Source: an uncultured Acidobacteriota bacterium (lineage in GTDB: Bacteria > Acidobacteriota > JAQAZP01). From it: a DNA stretch of 64,000 nt. Position numbers and translations under genes: made by a program. The DNA lies in assembly GCA_963836075.1 (NCBI GenBank), contig CAWIIB010000009.1, positions 1,696,001 through 1,760,000 of the forward strand. Reading direction: 5' to 3'. The notes under the pieces were generated by a model. The model saw only the letters and a list, made by a program, of their open reading frames with translations, was not told where the DNA came from and ran no database searches. Positions within the stretch are counted from its first letter, which is position 1. Each line of letters starts with the position of its first letter. Of the stretch, positions 24,862 to 63,557 are shown one piece after another.

Positions 24862-25136
24862 TGAGCGTTCTTGGCGAACTGGCCCGGGCCCTCCGCTCGG
24901 ACAGCCTGGCCCGCACCGAACTGGCCGACGGCACCGGTGTGATCCTCCATCTGGATGGTGCGCAGATTTACTCGCTCAACGACACCGGCATGTTCCTCGT
25001 CGGTCGGCTCTGCGCTGGCGAGGAGAACGCCGACCAACTGGTGCGGGCCCTGGCCTCCGCCTTCAACATCGACGAAATCACCGCCCGCCGCGACCTGGAC
25101 CGCTTCGCCACCGAGCTGCATCGCCTGCTCTGCTAA
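24858..25136 (+). CDS. PqqD-family RiPP recognition element (lasso B1)
   Basis: IYSLNDTGMFL...LASAFNIDEITARRDLDRFATEL, typical RRE. Confidence 0.88.
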   Translation: MMSVLGELARALRSDSLARTELADGTGVILHLDGAQIYSLNDTGMFLVGRLCAGEENADQLVRALASAFNIDEITARRDLDRFATELHRLLC

Positions 25137-37779: not shown

Positions 37780-38700
37780 ATGCTCAAAATCAGTCAGCTG
37801 GTGAAGGTGTACCCCGGTCCGGTGGCCGCTCTGCAGGGGATCGATCTGGAGCTTGCCAGTGGCATGTTCGGGCTACTGGGCCCCAACGGGGCGGGCAAGT
37901 CCACCCTGATGAAGATCGTGGCCGGTATCCTCGAGCCGACGTCGGGCGAGGTCTGGCTTGACGGGGTCAACGTTACTGCCAAACCGCAGCATGTTTGGGA
38001 AAGGCTGGGGTATCTGCCCCAGGATTTCGGTTTCTACCCCCAGCTCACCGGCCGGGCCATGCTGGCCCACCTGCTGCGGCTCAAGGGGGTGCGCGCTCCC
38101 GGCGGGGAGAAGAAACTGTGCAACGAACTGCTGGAGCGGGTCAACCTCGGTCACGCCGCGGGCCGCAAGGTGGGCGGTTACTCCGGCGGGATGCTGCAGC
38201 GGCTGGGCATCGCCCAGGCCGTGGCCGGCGACCCGAAGATCCTGGTGGTGGATGAACCCACCGCCGGTCTCGACCCTGAAGAGCGGCTCCGTTTCTATCG
38301 CATCCTGGCCGATCTGGCAGAGAACCGGGTGGTGCTCCTCTCCACGCACATCGTGGAGGACGTCGCGGTTCTCTGCCCCCAGTTTGCCATCATCCACCAG
38401 GGCAAGCTGCTGACCCGCACCACACCGGTGTCGGCCCGCGCCGGCGTTGCAGGAACGATATACCAGGGTGACGTCGAATCCGGTGAGCTGGAAGAGCTGC
38501 AGCGGCAAAACACGGTGATCCACTGCCTGCTCTTCGAGGGCCGCAACCGGGTGCGTATCCACCAGCCCCAGGGCGAGCCGCCTGCCAGCTTTACTGCTGT
38601 CGAGGCCACACTGGAAGACGCTTACGTCGCCGCTGTGCGCAACGGGGCCACGGTGCCACCCGAAATGGCCGACAGTTTGAACAGTGAGGCCGGGACATGA
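37780..38700 (+). CDS. ABC transporter ATP-binding protein
   Basis: GPNGAGKST, YSGGM, VVDEPTAGLDPEER, STH. Confidence 0.92.
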   Translation: MLKISQLVKVYPGPVAALQGIDLELASGMFGLLGPNGAGKSTLMKIVAGILEPTSGEVWLDGVNVTAKPQHVWERLGYLPQDFGFYPQLTGRAMLAHLLRLKGVRAPGGEKKLCNELLERVNLGHAAGRKVGGYSGGMLQRLGIAQAVAGDPKILVVDEPTAGLDPEERLRFYRILADLAENRVVLLSTHIVEDVAVLCPQFAIIHQGKLLTRTTPVSARAGVAGTIYQGDVESGELEELQRQNTVIHCLLFEGRNRVRIHQPQGEPPASFTAVEATLEDAYVAAVRNGATVPPEMADSLNSEAGT

Positions 38701-41700
38701 GCCCGCAACGCCTCTGGACCATCTGCCGTCTGGAGCTGGTCACCACTTTTAAACGTCCCCTCTTCTGGATCTGGATCTTTCTCGTGCTGCTGCTGGCGAT
38801 GATCGTCTCCGCCGGGGTGATGAAGATCCACTCCGGCGAGGACATGGCCGGCGGCCTGCAGGCCAACATCACGTCACAGTTCGCCAATGCCTGGGAGATC
38901 GCCCTGCTGGGGGCGATGCTCTACCCGCTCTTCGTTGCCGCCCTGGCCGGGATGGGTGTACTGCGGGACGGCGAGCTGCGTATGGAGGGTCTGCTGCACT
39001 CAACGCCGCTCAGGCCGGTGGAGTATGTCTGGGGCTCCTTTCTCGCCGCGATGATCATCTCGCTGGTGGTGCTCGCCGTTCAGCTGGGGCTGACCATGCT
39101 TTACAAACATACGATGACGGCGGGGGCGCACCCGGAACTGGCCGGCGAGTTTGTCCTGGCCAATTACCTGGTGCCGGCACTCTACTTCGCCCTGCCGCTG
39201 ATCGTCTTTGTCGCCGGCGTGAGCTTTGCCGTTGGTGAACGGACGCGTAGCCCGATGATGGTCAACATGGTGCCGCTGGTCCTGCTGCTGGGCAGCGTCT
39301 TTTTCCTCTGGACCTGGTCCCCCGGCTGGCTCGCTCCGGGCTGGAACCGCTTCCTGATGCTGATCGAACCCACCGGTTTTCGCTGGCTCAACGAGACCTG
39401 GATCAAGGCCGACATGGGGGCCTCGTTTTACAACACGGCCCGGGTCACCCTCGATCCGGCATTCCTGCTCAGCCGCCTGGCCCTGGTGGGGATCGGGCTG
39501 GGCGCCGTCTTTCAGGCGCAGCGTCACCTGGCCCGTACCCTCCGCGGCGGAAAAGTGGGTCGCGCCGCAGTGAAAAGCGCCCTGGCCGCTCCCCGCAGTG
39601 AAACCGTCCGTCCGGTGGTTACCGAAGCGAAGCTGGGCGACCTGGGCATGACCAGCCGGCGGCCCGGGCTGCTGGCCAGCCTGCTGGAGGTCACCCGCCT
39701 GGAGCTGCATGCCCTGGTGCGGCACCCGGCCATCTGGCTGCTGCTCTTCCTGGTGGTGCTCAACTGCACCGTTGACGCGATCTATGCAGTGGGCCCCTTC
39801 GATGCGCCGCTGCTGCTGACGCCCGGGGTGAGCGCGGTGGGCTCGCTGGTGGAGCTGACCTTTACCCTCTGCCTGCTGCTGATGTTCTACACGGTGGAGT
39901 CGCTGCGCCGCGAGCGCAAGACACGGATCGACTCCATCGTCTACGCCACGCCCCTGCCTACCAGCGCCCTCATCCTGGGCAAGGCCCTGGCCAGCAGCCT
40001 GGTGGGGGTGATGACGCTCCTCGCCGTGTTCCTGACCTGCGCGGTGCTGCTGCTGCGGCAGGGGACCGTCCCCCTGGACCCGCGGCCCTACATCATCGTC
40101 TACGGCCTGCTGCTGGGGCCGGTGGTCATCTTCTGGTGCGCCCTGGTGGGCCTGATCTACTCGCTCACCGGCAGCCGCATGACCACCTATGCCCTCTCCA
40201 TCGTCGTGATGATCATCTCCCCGATCCTGCTGGTCACAAAAAAGATGAGCTGGGTCTGGAACTGGTCGCTGGCCGGTGCCCTGCGCTGGAGCGACATCGC
40301 GCCTTTTGAGATGAACCGCGCACCGCTGCTGCTCAACCGCCTGCTGGTGCTGTCGCTGGCCGCTTTGCTGCTGGTGCTCATCGTGCGGGTCTTCCCGCGC
40401 CGGGCTTTCGACGCCGTCCGTATCTCCCAGCGGCTGCGCCCCTCGGCCCTGGTGAAGACCGCGCTGATCCTGTCCCCACTGATCATTCTGCCCTTTGCCC
40501 TTGGCGTCACCCTGCAGAAGGGGGTCAACCGCGGTCTGGAGGGACGAAAGATCGAGCGCTGGTCAAAAAACTACTGGCAGCGCAACCACGCCACCTGGCT
40601 CGACGTCCCCACACCCGATTTGGTCTTCTCGGACATCGAGCTGGAACTCGATCCCGCAACGCGCTGGTTCTCCACCCGGGGGCGCTTTCAGATGGTGAAC
40701 GGGGGAGAGGAGGCGCTGGTGCAGATCCCGATCACCGGCGGGCCGCACTGGCAGAAGCTCAACTGGACTTTGAATGGCGTGGCATACGAACCCGAGGACC
40801 GCCAGGGCCTCTACCTCTTCACCCCATCCGAGCCACTGGCCCCGGGTGAGCACTGCTCGGTGGGGTTCTCTTTCGAAGGCGTCTTCATCGAAGGATTCTC
40901 CAAAAACGGGGGGGAGAACAGCGAGTTCATTCTCCCCTCCGGTGTGGTGCTCACCTCGTACTCGCCCACTGTTTTCCCGGTGGTGGGCTACCTCGAGGAA
41001 CTGGGGATCAACGAGGACAACGAGTACGACGCGCGGGAATACCCTGAAGATTTCCACCAGGGTGTGACCCCGGCGCTCTGGGGGCCGGACTCCCCGCAAC
41101 GCACCCGGGTGCGGATCACCGCTCCTGAGCGGTACACCATGAACTCGGTGGGTGTGAAGACCGGGGATGAGGTCAACGCCGGCAAGCGGACGGTCACCTG
41201 GGAGAGCGACTACCCGGTGAAAAGCTTCAACGTGGTGGGCGGATTGTGGGATGTGCGCCGCGGGGAGGGAACCGCGATCTTCCACTACCCCGGGCACACT
41301 TACAATCTCGATGAAATGATCGAGGCGCTGGACGGCGCCCGCCGTTACTACTCGGAGTGGTTCCACCCCTACCCCTGGCAGGAGCTGAAGCTCTCCGAGT
41401 TCCCGGCCGAGGCCAGTTACGCCCAGGGCTTCTCCACCAACATCACCTTCTCCGAGAACATGGGGTTCCTCGCCCAGCCCGACCCGCGGGCCAACGCTCC
41501 GTTCATGGTCACCGCCCACGAGGCGGCACACCAGTGGTGGGGCGGACTGGTGGTACCCGGGGAAGGTCCGGGGGGCAACATCATCTCCGAGGGGATGGCC
41601 CACTTCTCCACTGCGCTGCTTTTCGAGGAACTGCGCGGCCCCGGGCAACGCACGGAGTTCTGCAAGCGGATCGAGGAACGCTACCTCGACCGGCGGGTGG

Positions 41701-42293
41701 TCAACTCGGAGCGGCCCCTGGTCAGGACAGACGGTTCCCGCGACGGTGACAACACCGTGACCTACGACAAGGGCGGCTGGGTCTTCTGGATGCTGTTCAA
41801 CCATCTGGGGCGTGAGAACGCGCTGGACGGGCTGCGCTCATTCATCGCCCACTATTCCCGGGATCCGGACCACCCGGTGCTGCAGGACCTGGTGGGCCAC
41901 CTGCGCCCCTTTGCCTCTGATAAGGAAGCCTACGACGCCTTTGTGGAGCAGTGGTTTTTCGAGATCGTCCTCCCCGAATACACCCTGAACCGTGTCGAGC
42001 GTGAGGAGTCACCGCCCGGCAGCGGAAACTGGCTGGTGCGTCTGGTTGTACGCAACGTGGGCACCGGGCGGATGCCGCTGGAGATCGCGGCGGAGCGGGG
42101 AGAGCGCTTCCCCGGTGCCGAGGAAACAGCCTCCACAGAGCCGTTACACGTGCAAACGGCCTCGGTCACCCCTGGCCCGCGCGAGGCGCAGGAAGTGGAG
42201 ATCCGCTGTGACTTCGAACCCCAGCGGGTGGTTGTCGACCCCGAGGTCAAGGTTTTGCAGCGTGGTCGTGCGTCTGCCATACGCCGGTTCTGA
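38697..42293 (+). CDS. ABC-2 permease (duplicated) fused to an M1-family zinc aminopeptidase domain
   Basis: Two 6-TM halves, then HEAAHQWWG...ISEG and YDKG motifs. Confidence 0.85.
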   Translation: MSPQRLWTICRLELVTTFKRPLFWIWIFLVLLLAMIVSAGVMKIHSGEDMAGGLQANITSQFANAWEIALLGAMLYPLFVAALAGMGVLRDGELRMEGLLHSTPLRPVEYVWGSFLAAMIISLVVLAVQLGLTMLYKHTMTAGAHPELAGEFVLANYLVPALYFALPLIVFVAGVSFAVGERTRSPMMVNMVPLVLLLGSVFFLWTWSPGWLAPGWNRFLMLIEPTGFRWLNETWIKADMGASFYNTARVTLDPAFLLSRLALVGIGLGAVFQAQRHLARTLRGGKVGRAAVKSALAAPRSETVRPVVTEAKLGDLGMTSRRPGLLASLLEVTRLELHALVRHPAIWLLLFLVVLNCTVDAIYAVGPFDAPLLLTPGVSAVGSLVELTFTLCLLLMFYTVESLRRERKTRIDSIVYATPLPTSALILGKALASSLVGVMTLLAVFLTCAVLLLRQGTVPLDPRPYIIVYGLLLGPVVIFWCALVGLIYSLTGSRMTTYALSIVVMIISPILLVTKKMSWVWNWSLAGALRWSDIAPFEMNRAPLLLNRLLVLSLAALLLVLIVRVFPRRAFDAVRISQRLRPSALVKTALILSPLIILPFALGVTLQKGVNRGLEGRKIERWSKNYWQRNHATWLDVPTPDLVFSDIELELDPATRWFSTRGRFQMVNGGEEALVQIPITGGPHWQKLNWTLNGVAYEPEDRQGLYLFTPSEPLAPGEHCSVGFSFEGVFIEGFSKNGGENSEFILPSGVVLTSYSPTVFPVVGYLEELGINEDNEYDAREYPEDFHQGVTPALWGPDSPQRTRVRITAPERYTMNSVGVKTGDEVNAGKRTVTWESDYPVKSFNVVGGLWDVRRGEGTAIFHYPGHTYNLDEMIEALDGARRYYSEWFHPYPWQELKLSEFPAEASYAQGFSTNITFSENMGFLAQPDPRANAPFMVTAHEAAHQWWGGLVVPGEGPGGNIISEGMAHFSTALLFEELRGPGQRTEFCKRIEERYLDRRVVNSERPLVRTDGSRDGDNTVTYDKGGWVFWMLFNHLGRENALDGLRSFIAHYSRDPDHPVLQDLVGHLRPFASDKEAYDAFVEQWFFEIVLPEYTLNRVEREESPPGSGNWLVRLVVRNVGTGRMPLEIAAERGERFPGAEETASTEPLHVQTASVTPGPREAQEVEIRCDFEPQRVVVDPEVKVLQRGRASAIRRF

Positions 42294-44733: not shown

Positions 44734-46527
44734 ATGAAACGTCTTCTGATTCTGCTTGTAATGTTCACCTTCGCGGCCATCGGCGCCGCGGACACCATCT
44801 ATGTCCCGGACGATCACGGGACGATTCAGGGGGCGATCGTTGCCGCCCTGGACGGGGACACGATCATCGTCCGCCCCGCAACCTACGAGGAGAACATCGA
44901 CTTCCTGGGCAAGGCCATCACCGTGAAGAGCGAGCTGGGACCGGAGCTGACGATCATCGATGGCAGCGATCCGGTGAACCCCGACTATGGAAGTGTCGTC
45001 ACTATGATGAGTGGCGAGGGTTTGGATTCGGTGCTTGACGGATTCACCCTCAGCTATGGGACCGGAAACTACTATCCGGATTCCGACGAGACTGCAGGCG
45101 GAGGAATTATGATCGAGCTCTCCTCCCCGACGATTATCAACAATATCATCAGCGAGAATACGGCGGACGGTGGCGCCGGAATAAATTGCTATGACAATTC
45201 TTCCCCCGTCATCTCCAACAACACTTTCACGGCCAACGCTGCCGGGGGTGGTGGGGGAGGGATCTTTTGCTGGGAAGGGTCTTCGCCGCTGATCACGGGC
45301 AACACCTTCACCGAAAACACGGGCCTCGAAAATGGTGGCGGGGCGATTGGCTGCTACCTTTTTTGCTCCCCGACGATCGCCAACAACGTCTTCACACTAA
45401 ACGCCGCCACCGGAGAGTATTCCCTTGGGGGGGCGGTCGGTTGCATTGGCCAATGTGATCCGGTGATCAGTAACAACGTCTTCGACCTCAACTCCTCGCC
45501 AAACGAGGGCGGTGCGCTCGCCTTCTTGACGGCCTGCGATCCGACCATCGAGAACAACATCATCACCAACAACTCGGCAGGCGACGCTGGCGGCGGAATG
45601 ACGTTCTGGACCGGATGTCATGCGACCATCACCAACAACCTGATCAGCGGCAACACATGTCAGGCAGTTATGGGTAGCGGCTGGGGTGGCGGTATTAACT
45701 CTTACAGCAGCATACTGACCCTGGCCAACAACACGATCACCGGGAATTCTGCCGAGCTAGTCGGCGGTGGGATTAGCCTCTTGTCGAATTCAGCCGCCAC
45801 CATCAGCAACACAATCCTTTGGGCCAATGATGCACCCGTAGGATCTGAGGGCTATGTTGGAGAACAAGACGAACTCACCATCAGCTTCTCCGACGTGTTT
45901 GGCGGACAGGACTCAATAAAACTTGATCCAGGCGCTACTCTCAACTGGGGCGCCGGGATGATCGACGCGGATCCGCTGTTTTATCTTCCAGCAGACGACG
46001 ACTACCACCTGCAGCAGGATCCCTGTCAGCCGGGGGTGGTCAACCCCTGCGTGGACGCGGGGAATCCGTTCAGTCCGATGATCGCGGGGACAACCCGCAG
46101 CGACTGCGGTCCCGATGTGGACCCCGTGGACATGGGCTATCACTACGCCCTCCTCGATACGGTCTCGGCAGATCTCGGCTGCGTTCCCGATTCTGGCGTG
46201 CTGCCCTTTGCCGTCCAGCTCAGCGTGACCCTGGGCAACGTCGTCGACTACGACCGAACAATCGCCGGACGGATCAACCTGACCCTGGCCGGCGGTGCGA
46301 CCTACCAGAGCTGGCGGGCGGGATACACCAACCTCGGACCGAACGAAATGTTCGTCACCACCTGGATGCAGACGCTGCCGGCGCTGGGAAGCCTGGTGGG
46401 GGGCAATGTCTTCGTACTTCACGCCGAAGACGTGACGCCGCCGCCATTCAACCAGCCGCCATTCCCGCCGTCGGGCGACATCGACACGGCCAGCTGCACG
46501 GTGACGGGGGAGGCATCGACGAGATAG
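44734..46527 (+). CDS. Secreted right-handed beta-helix repeat protein with shared C-terminal domain
   Basis: Signal peptide; TIQGAI, YEENIDFLGKAITV; repeated GGGI.C..SSP.I.NN; DPLF...DYHL...NPCVDAG. Confidence 0.82.
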   Translation: MKRLLILLVMFTFAAIGAADTIYVPDDHGTIQGAIVAALDGDTIIVRPATYEENIDFLGKAITVKSELGPELTIIDGSDPVNPDYGSVVTMMSGEGLDSVLDGFTLSYGTGNYYPDSDETAGGGIMIELSSPTIINNIISENTADGGAGINCYDNSSPVISNNTFTANAAGGGGGGIFCWEGSSPLITGNTFTENTGLENGGGAIGCYLFCSPTIANNVFTLNAATGEYSLGGAVGCIGQCDPVISNNVFDLNSSPNEGGALAFLTACDPTIENNIITNNSAGDAGGGMTFWTGCHATITNNLISGNTCQAVMGSGWGGGINSYSSILTLANNTITGNSAELVGGGISLLSNSAATISNTILWANDAPVGSEGYVGEQDELTISFSDVFGGQDSIKLDPGATLNWGAGMIDADPLFYLPADDDYHLQQDPCQPGVVNPCVDAGNPFSPMIAGTTRSDCGPDVDPVDMGYHYALLDTVSADLGCVPDSGVLPFAVQLSVTLGNVVDYDRTIAGRINLTLAGGATYQSWRAGYTNLGPNEMFVTTWMQTLPALGSLVGGNVFVLHAEDVTPPPFNQPPFPPSGDIDTASCTVTGEASTR

Positions 46528-46680
46528 TCACGGGCGCCACCGTGGCGGCGGGGAGGTTGTAAATCGAGTCCAGCTCTTATCACGGACATCTTTGGCGAAG
46601 GGAGGTGGAAATCCCTCGGATTGAAGAAAGCAGGCGCTTTGGGAGTTCAAATATCATCAACCCTTGGAGGAGGACCTATC

Positions 46681-47808
46681 ATGTATCGCTCAACTTTTAT
46701 CCTGGCTATTGCCGTCCTGTTCCTGACAGTGCTCTCGCCCTGTGTGTCGGCTGAGATCCCTGACGGGACACAGGAAGTGCTCGGAGAATCAGATGGCGCT
46801 CTGTACGCCCTCTATCACCCGCCCTCGTGGAACGGTGACCTGGTGCTCTACGCCCATGGACACGTGTATCTCGACCAGCCGATCCAATTGCCTCAAGGCT
46901 TTGCGCCGACCCGGGACGGTCTTCTGGAACTTGGATACGCTGTGGCCTATTCCAGCTTCTCGAAAAACGGGTGGGCGGTCAAGGAAGGATTCAAGGAGAC
47001 CCGTCAGCTGCGCACGATTTTTGCCGAATGGTTCCAGATGCCGAACAACATATACGTCATGGGGCACTCGATGGGCGGACTGATCGCCGTGATGCTGGCC
47101 GAGAAGCACCCCAGCCTCTTTGCCGGGGCCGTCCCCATGTGCGGTGTGATCGGTGGTTCACAGATGGGGATTGACTATAAGTATGATATCCGCGTGTTGT
47201 TTGACTACTTCTATCCGGATGTGCTGCCCGGCAACGCCCTGGAGGTTCCGGAAGACTTTGATTGCTATGACGGTACCGCGTTCTTTGTTGCAGTCTACAC
47301 CAACCCCGGAGCGCTCTACGAACTCGCTGGCATAGACCAGGTTGAGATCCCGTATGCCAGCTTCGATGAGCTGGTCTGGTCGGTCATGATGAATATTTGG
47401 GGTCACTGCATGGGCTGCAATGGATATCTGGAGCTGATGAACAATCACATCTTCTATGACAACTCGGCCACCTACTACACCGGCTCCATGGATGACGAGG
47501 CACTCAACGCCGGCGTGGACCGCTTCGAGGGACATCCCGCCGGGCACAATTATTTACGGCGCTATTACCAGCCGACCGGCAGGCTGAACATTCCGGCCCT
47601 CACCCTGCACACTTCGGGCGACGGTGTGGTGCACCCGACGCATCAGGCTGCGTACGCGGCAATCGTTGCCGCGCAGGACAATCTGGATCAACTCGTGCAG
47701 CGTGAGTTTGACCGCTTCGATCACTGCACTTTCACCACTGAGGAGGAGATCGAAGCTCTCCTGGACGTGGTTGACTGGGTGGAGACGGGGGTGCCGCCAA
47801 CGCCGTAG
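46681..47808 (+). CDS. Secreted alpha/beta hydrolase
   Basis: Signal peptide, YAHG, nucleophile GHSMGG, DGVV, HCTF. Confidence 0.8.
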   Translation: MYRSTFILAIAVLFLTVLSPCVSAEIPDGTQEVLGESDGALYALYHPPSWNGDLVLYAHGHVYLDQPIQLPQGFAPTRDGLLELGYAVAYSSFSKNGWAVKEGFKETRQLRTIFAEWFQMPNNIYVMGHSMGGLIAVMLAEKHPSLFAGAVPMCGVIGGSQMGIDYKYDIRVLFDYFYPDVLPGNALEVPEDFDCYDGTAFFVAVYTNPGALYELAGIDQVEIPYASFDELVWSVMMNIWGHCMGCNGYLELMNNHIFYDNSATYYTGSMDDEALNAGVDRFEGHPAGHNYLRRYYQPTGRLNIPALTLHTSGDGVVHPTHQAAYAAIVAAQDNLDQLVQREFDRFDHCTFTTEEEIEALLDVVDWVETGVPPTP

Positions 47809-47840
47809 GGACTGAATTCGGTGAGAAAAGGAGAGACCTC

Positions 47841-49497
47841 ATGAACACCACAAAGAAATTTGTCTATTTGAGCATTGTCGGCTTCACGGCCATGCTGCTC
47901 GTTTTTCCAGTGACCAACCCGGCCGTCGCGGTTGAGATCAACAAGGATTTCGTTCAGAACTGGAAAGTGCTTGTCAGGGGCTCTCCGATTCACGGAGCCA
48001 ATGGCCTCGCGTTCGATAGTCACGACAGACTGCATATCGCCAGTGCCATGGGCCGCGAGATCGTTGTGATGGACCCCGGCACAGGCAAGATTCTCTATCG
48101 ACTCGGTCCGGCGGATGGCGTCGAGTCCCCGGACGACGTCACTTTCGGCCCGCCGGGTTCGGTGTATCAGGACGAACTGTTCTGGACGTCGATATTCACC
48201 GGTGAGGTCGGTCGGCTGTCCCCGAACGGGACAAAGATCACCGCCGGTCAGCTCTTTCCGGGGGTGAACCCGATCACCTTTTCCGACGACCTCCGGCTGT
48301 TCGCGGCGCACGACTTCTATGGGTTCGCCGGCCTGTACGAGATCGATCCGGACGGCACGCTTCCGCCGACCGAATTGGACCCCGACTTTTACAACCTCAA
48401 CGCGTTCGACTTCGGACCGGACGGCCTTCTTTATGGCCCGATCTTCCAGGAGAAAATTCTCAGAGTCGACGTCGATTCGGGTCCTCCGCCGCTTTGGTTC
48501 GAGGACGTCCTCAACCCGTTTGCCTCCGCTGCGGTGAAGTTCGACGCCGAGGGGTGCCTTCACGCACTCAATCTCGACCGGGTGGTGAGTATCGATCTGG
48601 GCACAGGTGCCGTCATGGTGGTTGCCGACGTCGGGCCGGGCCTCGACAACCTGGCGTTCGACTCGCAGGGGAATCTGTTCGTGTCAAGTTTCGTCAGCGG
48701 AACCATCTACCGTGTTCTTCCCAGCGGCGAGGTGCGCGAGATCAGCAAGGGAGGAATGATCGCGCCGGGTGGCGTCGCAGGTACTGCCTCGTCCTCTGGG
48801 CGGTGATTCCGTCTTCGTTGCGGACGTGTTTTCCGCGCGCGAGTTCAACGCGAAAACCGGACGGCCCGGGGCGTTTGCGGAGATGTTCGGCAGCGCTCTG
48901 ACCATCGCCCCGTATGGTGAGGGCCTGGTTCTCTCATCCTGGTTCACCAATTCGGTGGAGGTGCGGGACGGAGAGACGCTGGAGCTCATCTCTGGCCCGA
49001 ATCTCTTCTCTTTCCCGTTGAACGCTATTGCGTTTCAGGGTGACATGGCCGTGGCCGAGCTCGGCACCGGGAGCGTTGTCCGCGGCGATTACTCGCCAAT
49101 TGCCACCGGTCTTGCCGTGCCGACAGGCCTGGCAGCGACCGAGACCGACCTCTGGGTGGCCGACTGGGCGTTGGGGGCTGTATACCAGATTGTGGAAGAC
49201 GGCGTTCCGGTCACCCCCATCCTCGTTGCTTCAGGCCTGATGGCGCCCGAGGGGCTTGCCGTCAACACCGACGGCAGCCTGCTGGTAGTGGAATCCGGTG
49301 CCGGCCGTCTGTCGAGTATCGATCCTGCGACCGGTGCCGTGACGACGGTTGCCGAGGGGTTAGAAACTGGAGCGCCGGCGGCTCCAAATGCTCCTCCGAC
49401 CTGGTTTTTTAATGGCGTTGCAGTCGGGCCGTCGGGCCACATATATGTGACGGGTGACAGGGCAAACGAACTCTACCGTTTCAAACAACACCCGTAG
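47841..49497 (+). CDS. Secreted beta-propeller (SMP-30/NHL-like) protein, frameshift near 48780
   Basis: NGLAFD, PDDVTFGP, DNLAFD, PTGLA, PEGLAV repeats; deleting one G at 48780-48781 joins the two ORFs. Confidence 0.75.
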
Positions 49498-52310: not shown

Positions 52311-54971
52311 TCAGAAAGAGAACTTTAGTCCTGCCACGAAGGTACCGGCCTCCATCCAGGTGTCGGCCTCGCCCCAACTCTGGTTGTCATACCACACGCG
52401 GCTCAGCACGAACTGGTTGTTGGTCACGTTGTAGGCGTCAAGGGTCAGGCTCAATACCGTTTCACCGATATTGATGCCCTTGGTCAGCCGCAGGTCGAGT
52501 TGCCAGGCATTCCCCAGGCGATGGGAGCCGGGCCGGTCGACATGATAAAAATACCCACCGTAATATATGTTAAAAGCGCCCTGGGCAGTCCCCGGAAGGA
52601 GATAATCTTGAACATCACCGAGCCGGTAATAGGGTGTGCCGGTACGCCACCTGAAAACAGCGCCGAGGATGATTCCCCATGGCATGTGGTACGCGCCGTT
52701 GAATTTGACATGGTGGCGAATGTCCCAGGGGAGCTCGCCATAGTGGTTGAAGTAGCGGAGCTCGGCAAAGTCGCCGAAGGGCTGTGTGCCCTCGTGGTTG
52801 AAGTCACCCATTGAACCCTCGGCCCTGGAGAGCGTGTAGGCAAGGTAGAACTGGCTGTTGCCCGAGAGCCGCTTCCGCAGTTGCAGGTCAAGGCCCCGGT
52901 ACTTCCGTTTCCCATCCGGGAGATTGGTGAAGTAATACTTGATTGTTGTCTCCTCCCCGCTGCGGATGGCGTCTTCGTTGCCGATGATATCTTCGATCAT
53001 GTTGTCCTGCCAGGAATAGCTGAGCCTGATCGCTGCCGAATAGTCAATGGCGAACTCGAACTCGTACCCGGCGGTCAGTTCATCCTTGAAGTTTGCCATG
53101 AGGTATGGATCCACCAGGGTGAGGTTGTCTTCCGGAGTAGTGTGGGAAGTCTCTTCCCAATCGCCGGTCTCGTAGTCGCCCTGATATTGCCAGGACTCGT
53201 TCTGCCGGCGGTTCAGATTCTGGCCGAGATACGTGCCCACGGCGTCGAAGTAACGGCCGTAACCAAGATGCACCTTGCTGCGTCCGTCCCCCCCGATGTC
53301 CCAGACGATGCCCGACCGCGGGGCGATAAGGTTGTCCAGCCGGTAGACCCGCTCACCCAGGTCGTTCTCCTGGGTCTGGGTCTCCCAGCGCAGACCCAGG
53401 TTGAAGGTCCACTTCTCATTCCAGTTCCAGCTGTCCTGGGCAAAGAACGTGAGGATATCGCCGCCGTTGCTGTACAGAAGGTCACTGGTTCGATTCAGCA
53501 GGTCCGGGCGGCCGTTGGGGCGGTTGATGATGTAGCTATCGGGATAGATCTCGTAACCCTCCAACTCGAATGTTTGGTATTCCGCTCCGAACTTGAAGTT
53601 GTGCGCACCGGCCCAGTCGCCCCGGTAGTAGTTGAGGGTTGCGGAGTAGAGGTCACGGGGGTGTTTTTCTTCGGGTACTGGCGGAGATATTTCCAGAGAT
53701 AATACTTCCATCGCCATTCCGGTTGTCCACGATGCGGTCGTCTCGCACGCCGGCGGAGGCCGGACCAACGGTCAGGTTCACAGTGTGCGTGGCCATCCTG
53801 GCCTCAAGGAAGAGGTTTGGTGTGAAGATGCTGGTCCAGAGCAGTGATCCCAGGCCGCTGCCTTCCTCTTCTACCGAATAGGCGCTTTCCATGATATCCG
53901 GGTCCTGTGAGTCCTTGCTGTCGATGGTGGTGGGGGTCGCCACATACTGGCCAACGATCTTGTTGTTCGGGTTCACCTGCCAGCTCAGCTTGAGCAGCAG
54001 TTCCTCGTAGATCTCGTTCCGCTTCACCTCCTCTTCGAAGTTGTTGATCCCCGTGATTCGGCGGGTCAGGTTGTTGTATGAGGCGAAAAACCAGAGTCTG
54101 TCTCTGAGCACCGGCCCACCCAGTGAGATCCCCGGTTCGACCTCGTAGAAGCTGTCCTCCTCAACATTGGTGCGGTCGGCCTGCTGGTGACGTTTGAGGT
54201 CGAGGTTGGTGTAGTAGACCGGCACCGTCCCATGGAACTCGTTGCCGCCCGATCTGGTGACCACATTGGAAATCGCTCCAGTGGCTTTCCCGTACTCGGC
54301 CTCCAAGCCCCCGGTGAGCGTCGTGACTTCCTGAACTGCTTCATAGCTGACCTTCAACCCGAAGTTCCCTGATGCGCTGTCGGTGGTGTCCATGCCATCG
54401 ACGAGGAAAACATTGTCGAACCAGGAGGCGCCGTGGCTGCGGATGTTGTAGAAATCGGTAGCTACTATACCGGGGACCATGTTTATGGCGGAGAAATAGG
54501 TTCGGCCATTGGGGATGTCATCCATCAATTCAGACGAGATTGTGTCACTGATGGTGGACGCCTTTGTGTCGACCATCGGTGTCTCGGCGACCACGGTGAT
54601 CTCGTAGTGGCTTCCTGTATCTGCCGTCAGGGTGAAATCCGCCCGGGCCTTGGTGCCCATTTTCACCTTGATGTCGGTTTGGACTACCTTCTGGAATCCA
54701 TCAAGGAATACGGCAACCTGGTATCCCTGTCCCACCGGCACCAGGGGGATGCGGTAGATTCCTTCGGTATCGGTGACTGCCTGTTGCTCGCCCGGCAGGG
54801 CGGGACCGGTGATGGATATAACCACCCCAGGCAGGGGATCTCCCGCCTGATCAACAATCAGGCCGGACAGGCTGCCGTCCTGTGTAGCGGCAACGGTATC
54901 AGTCATGCCCGGAGGAGGAGGAGGAGAAAGAGGATCGGGAGCAACAGCCGGTGGACCTGCCTGGTCTTCAT
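52311..54971 (-). CDS. Oar-type TonB-dependent receptor with carboxypeptidase-regulatory-like N-domain, two frameshifts (~54910, ~53674)
   Basis: GGAGG RBS plus signal peptide MKTRQVHRLLLPILFLLLL; GDPLPGV, AEYGKATG, SGGNEFHG, LGGPVLRDRLWFF, NLGLRWE; ends GLKFSF. Confidence 0.82.
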
Positions 54972-55364
54972 GGTGATCCCTCCAAAGGGCTCCTCCTTTC
55001 AGACATGAACTATGATGGATGTGAACGGATTTAGAGGTGCAGGTGCAGGTGTAGGGGGCAGGAGGTGGCGCGTTCAATTGTGACGGCTCAAAGGTTCAAC
55101 AGATGTATGAAATAAACGTGCGACCTATGACTGTATTTGTCAAGTGGTAATTTCATTTCATTTGAGGTTATTCAATTAAGGTTTTTTATTGCAATGAATA
55201 ACATGATCATCCTTCTGATGGTTGGCGATCGCAACCTGACTCAGCTCGGTTCCCAGGCCCCATACTGAGTTCCCGTCCGAGGCGGTGCTAAAGTTCCGGC
55301 GGCAGTACACGGTGATGTACTGCCTGTGCTTAGAGGGCTCTAACCGCGTACGAATGTACCAGCT

Positions 55365-59368: not shown

Positions 59369-61156
59369 GTGCGTTTTTCTCGCCTCATCGCCATCACTCT
59401 CCTCTTCGTCCTCGATATCCTGGTGTGTACCACCGGGGCGATTGCTTCCGAACCTGACATCCCTGACGGCATGGCCGTCGAGATCGTGCTCGACGACTTC
59501 GAGACCCAGTTCCCCGCTTTTCACCAGGGCACCCGCTACGATCTGGCCGGCTGGGACGCCGCCCGCTCGGTGGTGGGGCTGGTGGTGGACCGGGCGGAGC
59601 TGGAAGCGCTCCGAGAGGAGGGCTATGAACCGGAAGTGGTGGCCCGGGCCACGCGGGGCGGTGTCGATCCCGAATACGTGGATTACGAGGAGATCCTCGC
59701 CCGCCTGCAGGAGATCGAGGGGGACTACCCAGCCATTGCCCGGGTGGTCAACCTCAACCAGGAGCTGGGTACGCCGCTGACCAGCGAAGGCCGGGCGCTC
59801 TGGGCGCTGAAGGTCTCTGACAACGTCCAGCTTGCCGAGGACGAACCGGCCTTCGTGGTGGACGGCGTCCACCACGCCCGCGAACTGGTCACTCCACTGG
59901 CTGTGCTCGACATCGCCGAGACCCTGACCCAGCGCTACGGCGGCAACCCCAGCGCCACCGCCTGGGTCGACGGTTACGAGATCTGGCTCATCCCGGCGGT
60001 CAATCCCGACGGCCTGGAATATGTCTTCGACGTCTACGACATGTGGCGCAAGAACCGCACCTATTTTCCCCTGGTCGATGAATACGGGGTGGACAACAAC
60101 CGCAACTATTCCTTTCTCTGGGGAGAGTGCGGAGCTGTGAGCAGCGATCCGTACAGCGATCTTTTCATCGGGCCTGCTCCTGAGTCGGAGGCCGAGACCC
60201 GGACCGTCGAGGCGCTGATGGCCCGGGAAAAACCGGCGGTCTACGTCAGTTACCACAGTTACGGCCAGGAGGTGCTCTATCCTTACGTCTGCGCCACCCT
60301 GGCCGAGACGGCGCTCTACCATGAAATCCGCGACGGGTACGCTGGACAGATGAGTTATGGTACCCGCCTCGCCTCGGCCAGCGGGGAGAGTTTCGAGGAT
60401 GCCTACAACGAACACGGGGCGATCGCCTTCCTCACCGAAACCGCCACCTGGTTCCAGCCCGCTTTCAGCGAGGTGCCGGTGATCCTCGAGCGGATCCGGC
60501 CCGGTTGGACCTACCTGATGGAGCGGGGGCTCAGTTCTTCGCTCACCGGCCGCGTCACCTCCGCGCTCACCGGGGCCCCGCTTCCCGGGGCGACGGTGTC
60601 GGTGCAGGAGGTGGCCTTTGTGGAAGGGGAGCGGCGCAATCCCGAACCGCTCTTTGGCGGCTTCACCCGGCTGCTCCAGCCCGGGACGTATACCGTGGAC
60701 GTCTCCTGTGATGGATACCAGACCCAGGTCCACCCGGTAACCATCGGGGCGGTGCCCTACCGGTTGGAGGTGCAGCTCCAGCCGGTGTCCCTCATCGGCG
60801 CCGGGCTGACCTGCGCTCCGGCTTCGGGCACCCTCCCCTTTGCCGTATCCATCAGCGCCACGCTGCAGAACCTCTACCCCGGCCTGGCCCGGACCGTGGC
60901 CGCCCGGCTCCACGTCACCCTGGCCGACGGGACTCAGCTGCCCAACTGGCGGGCCGGCTTCACCAACGTCCCGGCCGGAGGCGAATATGTCGCCGCCTGG
61001 ACCACCCAGTTGCCGGCCCTGGGTGCGCTGGTGGGGGCGAACCGCTTCCTGCTTTTTGCCGAGGATGTAACCGCCTCGCCCTGGAACCAGCCGCCCTACC
61101 CGCCCTCCGGCAGCACCGGCAGCGCCCAGTGCCTGGTGACCGGCGCCGCGCCCTGA
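59369..61156 (+). CDS. Secreted M14 zinc carboxypeptidase with regulatory-like domain and shared C-terminal domain
   Basis: Signal peptide; HHARE, NPDG, WRKNR, DNNRN, SYHSY; GRVTSALTGAPLPGATV. Confidence 0.9.
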   Translation: MRFSRLIAITLLFVLDILVCTTGAIASEPDIPDGMAVEIVLDDFETQFPAFHQGTRYDLAGWDAARSVVGLVVDRAELEALREEGYEPEVVARATRGGVDPEYVDYEEILARLQEIEGDYPAIARVVNLNQELGTPLTSEGRALWALKVSDNVQLAEDEPAFVVDGVHHARELVTPLAVLDIAETLTQRYGGNPSATAWVDGYEIWLIPAVNPDGLEYVFDVYDMWRKNRTYFPLVDEYGVDNNRNYSFLWGECGAVSSDPYSDLFIGPAPESEAETRTVEALMAREKPAVYVSYHSYGQEVLYPYVCATLAETALYHEIRDGYAGQMSYGTRLASASGESFEDAYNEHGAIAFLTETATWFQPAFSEVPVILERIRPGWTYLMERGLSSSLTGRVTSALTGAPLPGATVSVQEVAFVEGERRNPEPLFGGFTRLLQPGTYTVDVSCDGYQTQVHPVTIGAVPYRLEVQLQPVSLIGAGLTCAPASGTLPFAVSISATLQNLYPGLARTVAARLHVTLADGTQLPNWRAGFTNVPAGGEYVAAWTTQLPALGALVGANRFLLFAEDVTASPWNQPPYPPSGSTGSAQCLVTGAAP

Positions 61157-61331
61157 CCCTCTCACAAACCCTTACATCGACACCCCATTGTGCCGAATAG
61201 AACTGTGTCAGCCGCAGTGTTGTGCTCCATCCGCTGACAGCGAAGATATTCCTGGCCTGGTCCCGCGGACGCCGCCGTGTGGCAGTGCTGCGGGCCGGAT
61301 TGACTGTACACGTGTGTGGGGGTGCGGCTGG

Positions 61332-63557
61332 ATGAACGAGAATAGCACGATGGAGGACCTGGGGTTGCTGGAGGATGTCCTGCTGCGCACGTCCCGGGGC
61401 CAGGCGTCATTCGAGGAGCTGGCCGAGTCACTGAACCAGCTGGAGAACGTGGTGCAGATCATCCCATCGGGCGAGTTCACCCGCTTCATGGGTGACATGA
61501 ACCAGGCGCTGAAGGACAAGGGCTATGGCAATGTCAACGCGAACGACGCCGAACAGCCGCGGGTGGCCGGGATCCGGACCGAGGACGGCCGCTTCGTCCC
61601 CTGGGTCTTCACCGATGATGCCATCGCCCGCGAGTTCGCCATCGCCAAGGGGATGATCCAGCCCGATGAGGCGCTGTCCCTGATTACCCGCCCGCCCGAT
61701 GTGGTGCTTTACGAGTGCCTGGCCGCCGGTCAGGCCGGCCTGGTGATCGACGAGGGCTCCGATCACAAGATCAATATGCAACGAAACGTGGTGGCCCGGC
61801 TGTACGGGCTGGTCACCTTCGGTCGCTTTGTTGCGCTGCCCGAATTGCAGGCGGTGATCCACGAGAACAAGGTCTTCTACCAGCAGCCCAAGCAGGGGGA
61901 GGGGCTGCAGGCCTTTGTCTACGACAGCACCGACGGGGCCATGGCCGGCATTGCCCGGATCCAGGAGAAGGCGCCGGCCATTTCGTTCCAGGCCGCGCCC
62001 ACCCTGCCGCACATCGCGAACCTGCTCAAGGCAGGAGTCACCCTCCTGGTGGTCAACCCGGCGCTGGCCAGCGAGCGGACGTACAACCGCGAAGACCTGG
62101 AACGCATGGCGTCCGCCGGTGAAGCCGAACCGCGGCCCGACCCCACTCCCGACTCGAATCTCAAATCCGATCCCGACCGGCGGGAGGCGGCGGGCAGCGA
62201 CCCGGCGCTGAACCTGCCGGAGCTGCTGCGCAAGGCCACAGCCTATCCCGCTTTCCCCATGGTGCCTCCGCCGGGGCGGGACGACCCGGCTTCCCAGGTG
62301 CGGTTCCAGGAACTGCGGCTCCAGGCCGAGAGCAAGGAGATCAACGTCTGGGAATACGTGGAAGCCCTGGCCTTCGACCTCGACGTTTACACCCCGGTGC
62401 ACGAACGGCCGGTGGACGGCCTCACCTGGCCGATGATCTACGCCCACCACTCGGAGGAGGGGAAGACCATCTCTTACGCCTACAGTGGTGAATCGCGGGT
62501 CAGGGAACAGCTGTCTGCCAACCCCGAGGAAGCGAGGAACTACCACCGTCTCTCGGGTATCGAGGCCATGCGCTGGGTTTGGGCCGCACCCAGGGAGATC
62601 CACGAGGTGGCGATCAATCTTTACAAGGATACCGATGGCTGGCTCTCCTTCCCCAGCTACTGGGCGGTGAGCGCAGCCTTCCCCCTGTTTTATGCAATTC
62701 CCGACCTGGGCCAGGTGTCCCGGGTGCCCCTGACCGGGATCACCGCCCTGCCCGGGGCTCGTGGCTTGAAGCCTGAAGTGGCCCGGGCGCTGATCGAGGG
62801 CTGGAAACTGCTGGTGTTGAGCGATGCCGGAGCGGCCAGCCCGGCCAGCCTGGTGGACTACCGGGGGCTGCACTGCGTGCCGCTGTTCTGCGACCAGGAG
62901 CAGTTTTTCGCCTTCCAGTCGGTCCACCCCGGAAACCCCTGCTCGGTTCTGGCCACGGGTGAGGAGCCTCCTTTCGAGCGGCTGCTGCGCGCGTCCGCCG
63001 GCTGCGACGGCGTCCTCCTCGACCCTGCAGGACCGCGGCCGCTGCTCCTCGAGCACGGCGACCTGCTGGCCCTCGCGCTCTGGGCGCGCAACAGCGGCCC
63101 TGCGCCACATGGGGGGGAGGTGGCGATTGAGACGGCCATGCTGCTGGGGGAGGGGGTGATCGATTCCGCCACTGCCGGGCGGATCGCGGCCTGCTGGCCC
63201 CGCTACTTTGCCGGACTGCACCAGAAGGAGGACGGCGGCGCCGAGCTGTTGATGACCCCGGACGCCGACCGCTGCGCGGTCTTCTCCAGCATGGAACTGG
63301 CCGGTGACTATATCGCCGCCAGCGAGAACCTGGGGCTGATCCCCCGGGGGACGATGAAGCCGGTGCCGATCCTGCACCGCTGGCAGTACAACATTTTCCA
63401 GACCATGGCGGCCAGTTTCACGCTGGGGGGCGTGATCGACCCGGTGGCCGGCGGAGGCGGGGGACTGTACCTCGACCCCCAGGCGGTGGAAGCGGCGATC
63501 CGTCACGTGGACCGGATGCTCAAGCCGCGGGTCGACGGCTTCGTGGCCGGGGAATAG
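61332..63557 (+). CDS. Hypothetical protein with tandem SseB-like repeats
   Basis: Repeated xVFTD/xLFCD/xVFSS followed by GLVID/LVVNP/GVLLDP/GVIDP. Confidence 0.55.
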   Translation: MNENSTMEDLGLLEDVLLRTSRGQASFEELAESLNQLENVVQIIPSGEFTRFMGDMNQALKDKGYGNVNANDAEQPRVAGIRTEDGRFVPWVFTDDAIAREFAIAKGMIQPDEALSLITRPPDVVLYECLAAGQAGLVIDEGSDHKINMQRNVVARLYGLVTFGRFVALPELQAVIHENKVFYQQPKQGEGLQAFVYDSTDGAMAGIARIQEKAPAISFQAAPTLPHIANLLKAGVTLLVVNPALASERTYNREDLERMASAGEAEPRPDPTPDSNLKSDPDRREAAGSDPALNLPELLRKATAYPAFPMVPPPGRDDPASQVRFQELRLQAESKEINVWEYVEALAFDLDVYTPVHERPVDGLTWPMIYAHHSEEGKTISYAYSGESRVREQLSANPEEARNYHRLSGIEAMRWVWAAPREIHEVAINLYKDTDGWLSFPSYWAVSAAFPLFYAIPDLGQVSRVPLTGITALPGARGLKPEVARALIEGWKLLVLSDAGAASPASLVDYRGLHCVPLFCDQEQFFAFQSVHPGNPCSVLATGEEPPFERLLRASAGCDGVLLDPAGPRPLLLEHGDLLALALWARNSGPAPHGGEVAIETAMLLGEGVIDSATAGRIAACWPRYFAGLHQKEDGGAELLMTPDADRCAVFSSMELAGDYIAASENLGLIPRGTMKPVPILHRWQYNIFQTMAASFTLGGVIDPVAGGGGGLYLDPQAVEAAIRHVDRMLKPRVDGFVAGE

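Follow-up and report, generated by a model that had tools for sequence, protein, structure and literature searches.

Hundreds of exported proteins from a small number of uncultured bacteria, otherwise unrelated, share a C-terminal domain whose family has no name. Two of its copies lie in the window, the whole 64-kb stretch of DNA analysed here, at the ends of a beta-helix protein (P0002) and an M14 carboxypeptidase (P0001). Judging from sequence, the domain is most likely an address label for export or surface placement of its carriers. We give about even chances to a more specific reading, in which the domain is a C-terminal tag that sorts exported proteins and is specific to the lineage. It would be a functional analogue, and not a detectable relative, of the T9SS CTD. 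The preliminary description of this DNA had proposed a candidate C-terminal sorting or attachment tag, and the analysis supports it as a candidate. The features in the window are as follows.

44734..46527, forward strand: gene of P0002, a 597-residue secreted right-handed beta-helix protein carrying copy 1 (ORF, Pfam).
44734..44790, forward strand: probable Sec signal peptide of P0002, residues 1-19, MKRLLILLVMFTFAAIGAA (sequence reading and crude scanner).
46162..46524, forward strand: copy 1 of the C-terminal domain, 121 residues up to the stop codon (alignment, profile).
46180..46182, forward strand: Cys7 of copy 1, first member of the conserved Cys pair.
46429..46476, forward strand: Pro-rich motif of copy 1, DVTPPPFNQPPFPPSG, the segment of highest conservation.
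46495..46497, forward strand: Cys112 of copy 1, second member of the Cys pair.
59369..61156, forward strand: gene of P0001, a 595-residue M14 carboxypeptidase with a CarboxypepD_reg domain, carrying copy 2.
59369..59446, forward strand: probable signal peptide of P0001, residues 1-26 (by eye; the weakest-supported part).
60794..61153, forward strand: copy 2 of the C-terminal domain, 120 residues (tblastn, MAFFT).
60812-60814 and 61130-61132, forward strand: Cys pair of copy 2 (residues 7 and 113).
61064..61111, forward strand: Pro-rich motif of copy 2, DVTASPWNQPPYPPSG.

A GGAGG-type ribosome-binding site precedes the ATG of P0002 and the GTG of P0001. The N-terminal parts of the two proteins are unrelated, as had been described: the Pfam search of window proteins assigns Beta_helix (3.4e-19) and NosD (2.1e-10) to P0002, and Peptidase_M14 (1.6e-47) and CarboxypepD_reg (2.9e-11) to P0001. 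P0001 also weakly matches an anammox S-layer model of NCBIfam, and this match covers the CarboxypepD_reg region.

Signal-peptide calls were made with our own crude scanner, or by eye. The N-terminus of P0002 (MKRLLILLVMFTFAAIGAA/D) is signal-peptide-like according to the scanner, with a putative cleavage site after MKRLLILLVMFTFAAIGAA. That of P0001 (VRFSRLIAITLLFVLDILVCTTGAIA/SE) was recognised by eye and is negative in the scanner because an Asp lies within the hydrophobic run. The signal peptides claimed for both proteins stand on the scanner for P0002 and on visual reading only for P0001.

A tblastn search of the domain against the whole window aligns the two copies with 52.1% identity over 119 residues (E 1e-35), and MAFFT gives 52%, which agrees with the manual count of ~62/120 and confirms a terminal domain of ~120 residues common to two secreted proteins. 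The copies had been placed 14 kb apart, and the copy-2 ORF was found 14.6 kb downstream; there is no third copy in the 64-kb window, all remaining matches having E>=2. The frame of copy 1 is free of stops over 121 residues and closes with TAG at 46525-46527. All the strings quoted for it earlier are present (LGCVPDSGVLPFAV, WRAGYTN, LPALGSLVG, AEDVT, PFNQPPFPPSG and CTVTG), and the two flanking Cys are found at residues 7/112 in copy 1 and 7/113 in copy 2. Copy 2 ends in ...CLVTGAAP followed by the stop codon, the typical ending of the family, and the tail of copy 1, ...CTVTGEASTR, is atypical within it.

The expectation that a two-copy HMM would match many proteins was borne out. The profile finds 486 representative proteins at E<=1e-3 (50% clustering) and 285 at E<=1e-30, and a later family search returned 860 clusters at 90% identity, so that hundreds of members exist and not just the two in the window. 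The best 80 of 158 genomic matches all fall within two MAGs, which hold at least 53 and at least 33 distinct copies. On the window's own contig (3,516,849 bp) 10 carriers occur among the matches listed, with P0001 as the 11th. Identity between paralogues is ~0.50-0.54 both within and between genomes, a comparison that reveals no per-genome homogenisation of copies in the two MAGs. In databases the carriers bear only the name “hypothetical protein” or names derived from their passengers, and neither the domain nor its motifs are described in the open-access PMC and bioRxiv literature searched.

In terms of position, the last copy lies at most 4 residues from the C-terminus in 145 of the 150 listed representatives (0-4 residues in 147/152 with both window proteins added), and of 86 ORFs taken from genomic DNA, 84 leave only 0-3 residues between its end and the stop codon. 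At least 246 of 273 carriers have Pro as their final residue, and 191 end in “AP”. A strictly C-terminal position, which the preliminary description had named as a sign in favour of a tag, holds for these proteins but not for 5/150, where the domain is internal and followed by CBM96-like, Laminin_G-like or FG-GAP parts. Two full copies occur in 8 of the 150 listed proteins. No low-complexity linker was found ahead of the domain.

The passengers comprise beta-helix and FG-GAP proteins, peptidases (S8, M28, M14, C25, C1), PETase-like proteins, GH5, LTD, CotH, sulfatase-type and BNR proteins, and in one carrier, P0256, a PPC domain is found in addition. The domain itself never falls within a Pfam family match. 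Signal peptides, which the preliminary description had named as a further sign in favour of a tag, are enriched: the crude scanner reports signal-peptide-like starts in 53 of 62 full-length carriers vs 30 of 85 neighbouring genes (p 6e-10).

As for known families, Pfam at E<=10 on 78 copies returned only 7 unrelated families, one member each, and NCBIfam at the same threshold scattered single matches at most; the C-terminal domains of P0001 and P0002 have no match in either. At the sequence level, the curated CBM, Ig-like, dockerin, SLH and PPC models match none of the 78 copies, and PF18962, TIGR04183, CHU_C and TIGR04131 match none even at E<=10. A PDB sequence profile search of the domain gave nothing, with a best E of 0.33. 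Against 8 beta-sandwich families hhalign reached a probability of at most 7%, on a panel of low sensitivity in which PKD vs PKD_6 scores only 1%. The best of the 8 was Por_Secre_tail (P 0.005-0.007, probability 5.6-7.1%, far from significance), with 7.1% and 5.6% against 45 and 25 type A CTDs respectively; C25_C, PKD, PKD_6, fn3, CARDB-like, GEVED and PPC gave at most 0.8%. At the sequence level, these searches bear out the earlier statement that the domain matches no recognised sorting or attachment domain, and they turn up no CBM or Ig family either.

The domain is ~118 residues long in the family. Its Cys pair is lost together more often than by chance: among 287 distinct copies, 243 have both Cys, 22 neither and 22 only one (Fisher p 4e-17). 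In residue couplings, computed on gap-free alignment rows, this pair is also the strongest (z 13.4). The Pro-rich motif has the family consensus DVTPaPyNQPPypp.G, with invariant D, T, P, N, Q, P and P (78 and 98 aligned copies), and the invariant Trp51, Arg52, Trp68, Asn26, Asn97 and Gln98 couple mutually and with the Pro-rich loop. Seven amphipathic segments are present, with coupling ladders between strands 2-5, 3-4, 3-6 and 6-7. Together with the Cys co-variation, these couplings, on which alone the fold is based, suggest a disulfide-clamped Ig-like sandwich. The Cys co-variation would also indicate an oxidising compartment, which we count in favour of export.

The closest parallel is the T9SS type A CTD (TIGR04183 / PF18962 Por_Secre_tail). 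Both sit at the extreme C-terminus of unrelated Sec-exported proteins, dozens per genome, on cargo such as gingipain-like C25, S8 and M14 peptidases and adhesin-like repeats. In the T9SS, PorU removes the type A CTD and the cargo becomes linked to anionic LPS. According to passages of PMC4804311, the RgpB CTD is an Ig-like Greek-key sandwich whose seven antiparallel strands are arranged 3+4, and the coupling ladders of our domain, itself a probable seven-strand Ig-like sandwich, fit that topology. The two differ in that there is no sequence or profile similarity, and in size, the type A CTD having 65 ordered residues in RgpB (same passages of PMC4804311) or ~100 (excerpts of PMC12618676). The type A CTD lacks the domain's conserved Cys pair, its invariant Pro-rich loop and its conserved ...G-x-A-P end, and paralogues of the domain are ~50% identical, whereas those of type A are given as <40% in excerpts of PMC12618676.

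The two also occupy the same place on a conserved C25 passenger. The MAG in which at least 53 copies were counted encodes P0085, whose 1212 residues include the domain at 1094-1211. Over 904 residues this protein shares 55% identity with P0292, a protein of candidate division LCP-89 in the FCB group. Both contain Propeptide_C25, Peptidase_C25 and C25_C, and P0292 ends in Por_Secre_tail at 1276-1351 of 1354. PF18962 is present on most of the 120 homologues listed for this passenger. On one conserved passenger, the domain takes the place of a T9SS type A CTD.

The T9SS type B CTD (TIGR04131 / CHU_C, PF13585), read by PorP/SprF-like shuttles, resembles the domain as a larger C-terminal secretion domain. 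In excerpts of PMC12618676, one machinery reads more than one tag class, and a T9SS tag can additionally set the final destination. Type B domains differ in being 150-235 residues long and give no HMM match; a gene for the cognate shuttle often comes after theirs, whereas this domain has no recurring neighbour in 76 loci and the window.

Several traits link the domain to the PEP-CTERM/exosortase, MYXO-CTERM/myxosortase and LPXTG/sortase systems: numerous paralogous carriers in one genome, N-terminal signal peptides, varied passengers and an uneven presence across lineages. These serve as criteria for recognising sorting signals in the parts consulted of PMC1569441 and PMC11980579. The PEP-CTERM, MYXO-CTERM, LPXTG and GlyGly-CTERM signals consist of a short motif, a transmembrane helix and a basic tail, unlike this probably folded domain of 118 residues. 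No carrier (0/273) has a 17-residue hydropathy window >=1.6 in its last 45 residues, and in 258/273 the last 8 residues contain neither Lys nor Arg; NCBIfam gives no match to these signals either. Lastly, PPC (PF04151), PKD, fn3, CARDB and C25_C are likewise small beta-sandwiches behind catalytic domains of secreted enzymes; unlike the domain, which has no HMM match to them and hhalign probabilities <=0.8%, such add-ons are not tied to the chain end and lack dozens of terminal copies on unrelated passengers per genome.

Among the neighbours of the carriers, the only recurring genes were Ser/Thr kinases, in 3 loci and the window, and these were rejected as linked genes because such genomes commonly contain them. 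No component of a secretion or sortase system was found among 184 neighbouring genes or in the window, no classic type A CTD in 1,555 locus ORFs or the window's six frames (own HMM of 45), and no T9SS component (PorV, SprA/Sov, PorK-N, PorU) over the cut-off in the 64-kb window and ~450 kb of two MAGs. Two kinds of NCBIfam match were discarded: a weak PorU-like one in locus L038 is the N-terminus of a C25 cargo, 84% identical to P0204, and the GldK-like ones are the FGE-sulfatase domain of a kinase. Locus L004 contains a choice-of-anchor J protein without a recognisable tag. The window holds an EPS gene cluster that includes a gene for a CsaB-like pyruvyl transferase; its presence may be coincidence. 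Promoter and terminator scans, Rfam and the tRNA search gave nothing useful.

If the domain is a sorting tag, an N-terminal signal peptide would first take the carrier through Sec into the periplasm. There the C-terminal domain would fold into an Ig-like sandwich of seven strands, which a disulfide would clamp shut between the first strand and the last. A hypothetical outer-membrane export or attachment machinery would then recognise the folded domain, possibly through the cluster of invariant Trp, Arg and Asn residues, the DVTPxPxNQPP loop and the free carboxyl end ...G-x-A-P. Finally, the passenger, be it a protease, an esterase, a glycosidase, a beta-helix or an FG-GAP protein, would be released or held on the cell surface. 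The fold, the recognition by a machinery, the passage of the outer membrane and any cleavage or anchoring are all inferred. What speaks for this reading from observation is the existence of the family, its extreme C-terminal position, the dozens of copies in one genome, the variety of passengers, the enrichment of signal peptides, the co-varying Cys pair, the replacement of a T9SS CTD on one conserved passenger, the lack of a classic type A CTD in the sampled DNA and, as evidence of selection, the median dN/dS of 0.31 for the domain in 13 orthologue pairs.

Some observations speak against a sorting tag. In the DNA sampled, no machinery for it turned up and no linked gene recurs beside the carriers. 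Paralogues stay ~50% identical, and between orthologues the domain is not more constrained than its passenger, with identities of 0.72 vs 0.70 and a median dN/dS of 0.31 (13 orthologue pairs) vs 0.22. The internal copies and the two-copy proteins are more easily explained by a binding module than by a signal that has to stand at the chain end. Furthermore, homologous passengers in the same MAGs end instead in a 340-residue FG-GAP repeat module, so C-terminal modules there need not be signals.

A different reading, which we consider rather unlikely, is a passive surface-retention or adhesion module, a lectin-like binder to the cell's own envelope polymer (EPS/LPS) or to particles. No dedicated translocon would be involved, and export would proceed by Sec and a general pathway. 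An autonomous domain that tolerates internal position and duplication would suit this, as would its replacement by the FG-GAP module. Trp, Arg, Asn and Gln-type residues are common in sugar-binding sites, and the coupled invariant cluster could equally be a glycan-binding site; the EPS cluster of the window also points this way, with the same caveat of coincidence. Against it stands the exact conserved ending, both the terminal Pro and the 0-3 residue tail, because a binding module needs none. The domain moreover replaces a secretion signal on a conserved 900-residue passenger, the passengers are far broader than carbohydrate-active enzymes, and no CBM family matches.

An improbable reading is that of a very divergent true type A CTD, which an ordinary T9SS (PorV shuttle, SprA translocon) would recognise. 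The bacteria would then be members of the FCB group or have acquired the T9SS from it. Position and kind of cargo are the same, including C25 gingipain-like peptidases, and the nearest outside homologues of one passenger, among those listed, are T9SS cargo of FCB-group bacteria. The strand pairs match the RgpB topology of the PMC4804311 passages, and Por_Secre_tail ranks first in hhalign, although far from significance. This reading is opposed by that same probability of at most 7%, by the absence of any CTD model match among the 78 copies, by a length of ~118 vs 65-100 residues, by the Cys pair and the Pro-rich loop of 20 residues, both absent from type A CTDs, and by the lack of T9SS genes in the sampled DNA. 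In addition, one MAG is labelled Acidobacteriota by its depositor; to our knowledge the T9SS has not been reported in that phylum, and a text search of open-access PMC and bioRxiv returned nothing on it.

Finally, a PPC-like folding aid, pro-domain or protective cap, which would help folding or keep an enzyme inactive before being cut off, its terminal Pro shielding the chain from the cell's own secreted carboxypeptidases, is very improbable: many carriers are peptidases (S8, M28, M14, C25, C1), and the conserved C-terminal Pro is a residue that resists many carboxypeptidases, but the domain occurs just as often on beta-helix, FG-GAP, LTD, GH5, esterase and BNR proteins, has no Pfam PPC match (hhalign 0.2% vs a single PPC sequence) and coexists with PPC in P0256.

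Returning to the sorting tag, a more far-reaching version, which we consider rather unlikely, is that the domain marks the cargo of an undescribed outer-membrane secretion or attachment pathway outside the FCB group, given the MAG labelled Acidobacteriota. If true, the folded C-terminal beta-sandwich export ticket known from the T9SS would have been invented independently, with its own receptor, and the swap on the C25 passenger would represent a transferred gene retagged for the recipient's system.

C-terminal sorting domains have repeatedly led to their machinery, as with sortase, exosortase, T9SS and myxosortase. A profile of this family would name, and predict a location for, hundreds of “hypothetical” proteins, would permit phylogenetic profiling for the cognate machinery, and would test a T9SS-style principle outside the FCB group or a T9SS that reads a third signal class. 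Once a host is cultured, the domain might also find use as a secretion handle. In the uncultured sediment- or soil-type bacteria that carry it, the tagged proteins look like the complete extracellular repertoire for degradation and adhesion.

Both copies of the domain in the window stand at the ends of genes that have a GGAGG-type ribosome-binding site:

44734-46527 (+): gene of the beta-helix protein P0002, 597 aa, with a right-handed beta-helix region (Pfam Beta_helix 3.4e-19, NosD 2.1e-10)
46162-46524 (+): copy 1, 121 residues up to the stop, at the 3' end of ORF 44734-46527
46525-46527 (+): stop codon of P0002, TAG in the sequence
59369-61156 (+): gene of the carboxypeptidase P0001, 595 aa, Peptidase_M14 (1.6e-47) followed by CarboxypepD_reg
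60794-61150 (+), as delimited by tblastn: copy 2, at the end of P0001

A tblastn search of the window with copy 1 returned copy 2 at 52.1% identity over 119 residues (E 1e-35) and no third copy, all remaining matches being no better than E 2. The preliminary description had proposed a tail shared at about this identity, bracketed by two Cys, on proteins with unrelated N-terminal regions. The alignment bears this out. Both copies have the Cys pair, and the beta-helix of P0002 and the Peptidase_M14 and CarboxypepD_reg domains of P0001 leave the two proteins nothing in common except the tail. The N-terminus of P0002 is signal-peptide-like.

Three genes follow copy 1 directly on its 3' side (46621-49497). 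Two encode an alpha/beta hydrolase and an SMP-30/ScyE-like protein with signal-peptide-like starts, the third an NHL-repeat protein, and the domain is absent from all of them. Directly 3' of copy 2 lies a 789-aa ORF (61188-63557, +) that matches no Pfam or NCBIfam model and has no relative among the 76 loci surrounding carrier genes in two MAGs, JAQAZP01 and CBESOE01.

The domain family is large and has no name. A profile of the two window copies, scored on 1.84 billion representative proteins, gave 486 matches at E<=1e-3, 444 at E<=1e-10 and 285 at E<=1e-30, so that the many relatives anticipated for such a profile do exist. A further search, word-indexed and run with a profile of 78 sequences, gave 860 clusters at 90% identity among 8,000 scored candidates. 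Detailed inspection covered 150 of the 486 matches and 120 of the 860 clusters, the best in each case. The two window copies match nothing in Pfam or NCBIfam; for 78 copies at E<=10 these databases returned scattered single matches only, in line with the earlier impression that no recognised family fits. The best E among PDB sequence profiles was 0.19, and text searches of open-access PMC and bioRxiv returned no description of the domain. Source names are “hypothetical protein” or derive from the passenger, the N-terminal part of the carrier. Where a protein consists of little more than two copies, as P0003 does, it lacks any precomputed Pfam domain.

As to position, 147 of 152 proteins (the two of the window and the best 150 of the 486 representatives) have 0-4 residues after their last copy. 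The same set has a second match in nine proteins (eight full copies, one partial) and an internal domain in five, followed by a CBM96-like, Laminin_G-like or FG-GAP part. The two-copy proteins are P0003, P0004, P0005, P0007, P0008, P0009, P0012 and P0015, and several of the second copies have the first Cys replaced; internal copies occur in P0026, P0054, P0064 and P0146. Metagenome gene calls can be wrong, so the position was tested again on genomic DNA. Among 86 domain-carrying ORFs in the 76 loci, 84 end 0-3 residues after the domain and the remaining two 6 and 12 residues after it. The expectation that the domain is always C-terminal thus holds for nearly all carriers and fails for the five internal cases, which are real proteins. 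The typical ending, present in copy 2, is C-T-V-T-G-[IVL]-A-P directly before the stop; at least 246 of 273 terminal carriers have Pro as their final residue, and 191 end in “AP”. Copy 1 (…GEASTR) and P0006 (…GEVSTK), its closest relative among the matches listed, end atypically.

One genome per species was scanned with a single degenerate peptide pattern, which gave 158 confirmed matches. The best 80, which were kept, all fall in the two MAGs, JAQAZP01 (“Acidobacteriota bacterium”, the depositor's phylum label) and CBESOE01 (“uncultured bacterium”). The counts of at least 53 and at least 33 distinct copies, respectively, are lower bounds for this reason. The window's own genome is not among the 76 loci; ten family proteins among the matches listed come from a contig as long as its own (3,516,849 bp), and with P0001 there are 11.

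Passengers are highly diverse. A Pfam scan of 90 of the 150 listed representatives found Beta_helix/NosD, FG-GAP, peptidases S8, M28, M14, C25 and C1, PETase-like hydrolase, GH5 cellulase, LTD, F5/8 type C, CBM96, BNR and DUF4465, and no Pfam family in 40 passengers. In none of the 90 did the best-matching Pfam stretch overlap the C-terminal domain. Further passengers, from precomputed domain lists, are CotH, arylsulfotransferase, FGE-sulfatase, metallophosphatase, sialidase-type and M23. There is no low-complexity linker ahead of the domain. Signal-peptide-like starts, foreseen for the relatives, were found in 53 of 62 full-length carrier ORFs and 30 of 85 neighbouring genes (p 6e-10), by a crude heuristic scanner that missed P0001 and is therefore neither sensitive nor specific.

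The most telling result is a tag swap with the type IX secretion system's C-terminal domain (T9SS CTD) on a C25 passenger. P0085, a gingipain-like protein of JAQAZP01 attributed to locus L067 (17,651 bp), has Propeptide_C25, Peptidase_C25, C25_C and a MAM-like domain, and residues 1094-1211 of its 1212 are the new domain. In five relatives among the matches listed (83-88% identity) the Pfam domains are the same and PF18962 (Por_Secre_tail) is absent. The next-best homologues among the matches listed (61-66% identity over a 651-residue query region) have PF18962; one is from candidate division LCP-89, a member of the FCB group, and some further ones bear the name “T9SS type A sorting domain-containing protein”. 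The LCP-89 homologue, P0292, is 55% identical to P0085 over 904 residues and divergent afterwards, with Por_Secre_tail at 1276-1351 of 1354 (41.5 bits against a cut-off of 27). The same passenger therefore ends in a proven secretion signal in some bacteria and in the new domain in others.

Ten positions are invariant in the 98-row and 78-row alignments (copy 1 numbering): P9, G12, P15, R32, G54, G80, D90, P95, N97 and P100. Conserved at >=90% are F16, N26, A35, G45, W51, R52, W68, P73, N82, F84 and V91. Of 287 distinct copies, 243 have both Cys, 22 neither and 22 a single one (Fisher p 4e-17). A mean-field coupling analysis of 350 gap-free copies (effective number 276) ranks the Cys pair first by a wide margin (z 13.4). 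It is followed by antiparallel ladders that join segments 2-5, 3-4, 3-6 and 6-7 of the seven alternating strand-like segments in the hydrophobicity pattern, and the Pro-rich loop is coupled with the N26, W51/R52 and W68 positions. From this co-variation, the pairings would be those of a 3+4 Ig-like Greek-key sandwich, the fold that a passage of PMC4804311 gives for the CTD of RgpB. The domain has neither a transmembrane helix nor a basic tail.

Copies are about 50-54% identical both within one genome and between genomes, hence there is no homogenisation within a genome. About half of the positions are fixed and the remainder saturated. Between orthologues of the two MAGs, domain and passenger have changed at similar rates (identity 0.72 and 0.70, 19 pairs; median dN/dS 0.31 and 0.22, 13 pairs), and the domain is under purifying selection without unusual constraint.

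No recurrent gene family lies beside carrier genes. Components of T9SS, exosortase or sortase systems above cut-off were absent from 184 neighbouring genes (NCBIfam) and from the window's genes (Pfam or NCBIfam). Weak PorU-like and GldK-like matches near carriers were considered as machinery and explained away. Since carrier genes are scattered, machinery, if any, is encoded elsewhere. The window has a polysaccharide biosynthesis cluster (733-17515) with a flippase, a CsaB-like pyruvyl transferase, several GT4 glycosyltransferases and a WecB/TagA-type transferase; linking it to surface anchoring is speculation only.

Other features of the window include a lasso-peptide-biosynthesis-like cluster (17548-25136) with an Asn-synthase-like cyclase (NF033535, 9e-26), ABC ATPase, B2 protein and PqqD-like chaperone. 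A 65-aa ORF in it (19453-19650), with the C-terminal end ...GGGSNTDAFGEGEFE, could be a lasso precursor closing a Gly1-Asp7 ring. Also in the cluster are three paralogous ORFs in tandem, whose starts are signal-peptide-like and which have a common ending, ...C[FY]QN..R.D:

19654-20388 (+): first paralogue, no Pfam or NCBIfam match
20429-21007 (+): second paralogue
21080-21664 (+): third paralogue, no NCBIfam match

At 37780-42293 an ABC ATPase gene precedes a 1,198-aa ORF in which an ABC-2-type permease region and an M1 peptidase domain are joined. A TonB-dependent-receptor-like gene (52311-55077, -; CarboxypepD_reg and outer-membrane barrel) comes as two overlapping ORFs in different reading frames. 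The break adjoins homopolymer runs (A5 and C5) near 53653-53700, and the split is either a frameshift, a pseudogene or an assembly error.

The main rival explanation, a passive lectin-like retention module, is rather unlikely in our judgement. It draws on the internal and tandem copies, on the conserved Trp/Arg/Asn cluster, and on homologous passengers of the same MAGs that end in a 340-residue FG-GAP module instead. This second C-terminal module (about 340 residues of FG-GAP repeats, 58-77% identical between proteins) has beta-helix and M28 passengers homologous to those of the 120-residue domain:

L003:3587-6076: FG-GAP-module protein
L014:2108-4516: FG-GAP-module protein
L053:3673-6012 (-): FG-GAP-module protein
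L032 and L064: FG-GAP-module proteins

A very divergent true T9SS CTD is improbable. The domain has no detectable kinship to the type A CTD (hhalign 7.1% and 5.6%, in an insensitive panel where most pairs of known families score <2%). An HMM of 45 type A CTDs also found none in 1,555 locus ORFs, the six frames of the window and 372 family proteins. A PPC-like pro-domain or protective cap is very improbable. In the same insensitive panel PPC scores at most 0.8% against the domain, as do C25_C, PKD, PKD_6, fn3, a CARDB-like region and GEVED.

Sorting signals, according to a passage of PMC1569441, were earlier recognised by a characteristic signature. The domain resembles the signals described there: it is terminal with a conserved carboxyl end, occurs in many copies per genome and in a narrow range of hosts, and its unrelated passengers have signal peptides. 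Its putative disulfide fits, as expected, a periplasmic or extracellular location. This signature, the replacement of the CTD and the disulfide together favour a sorting or attachment tag. We thus see an even chance that the domain is a lineage-specific C-terminal tag for sorting or attachment, which would work like the T9SS CTD while lying outside that family.
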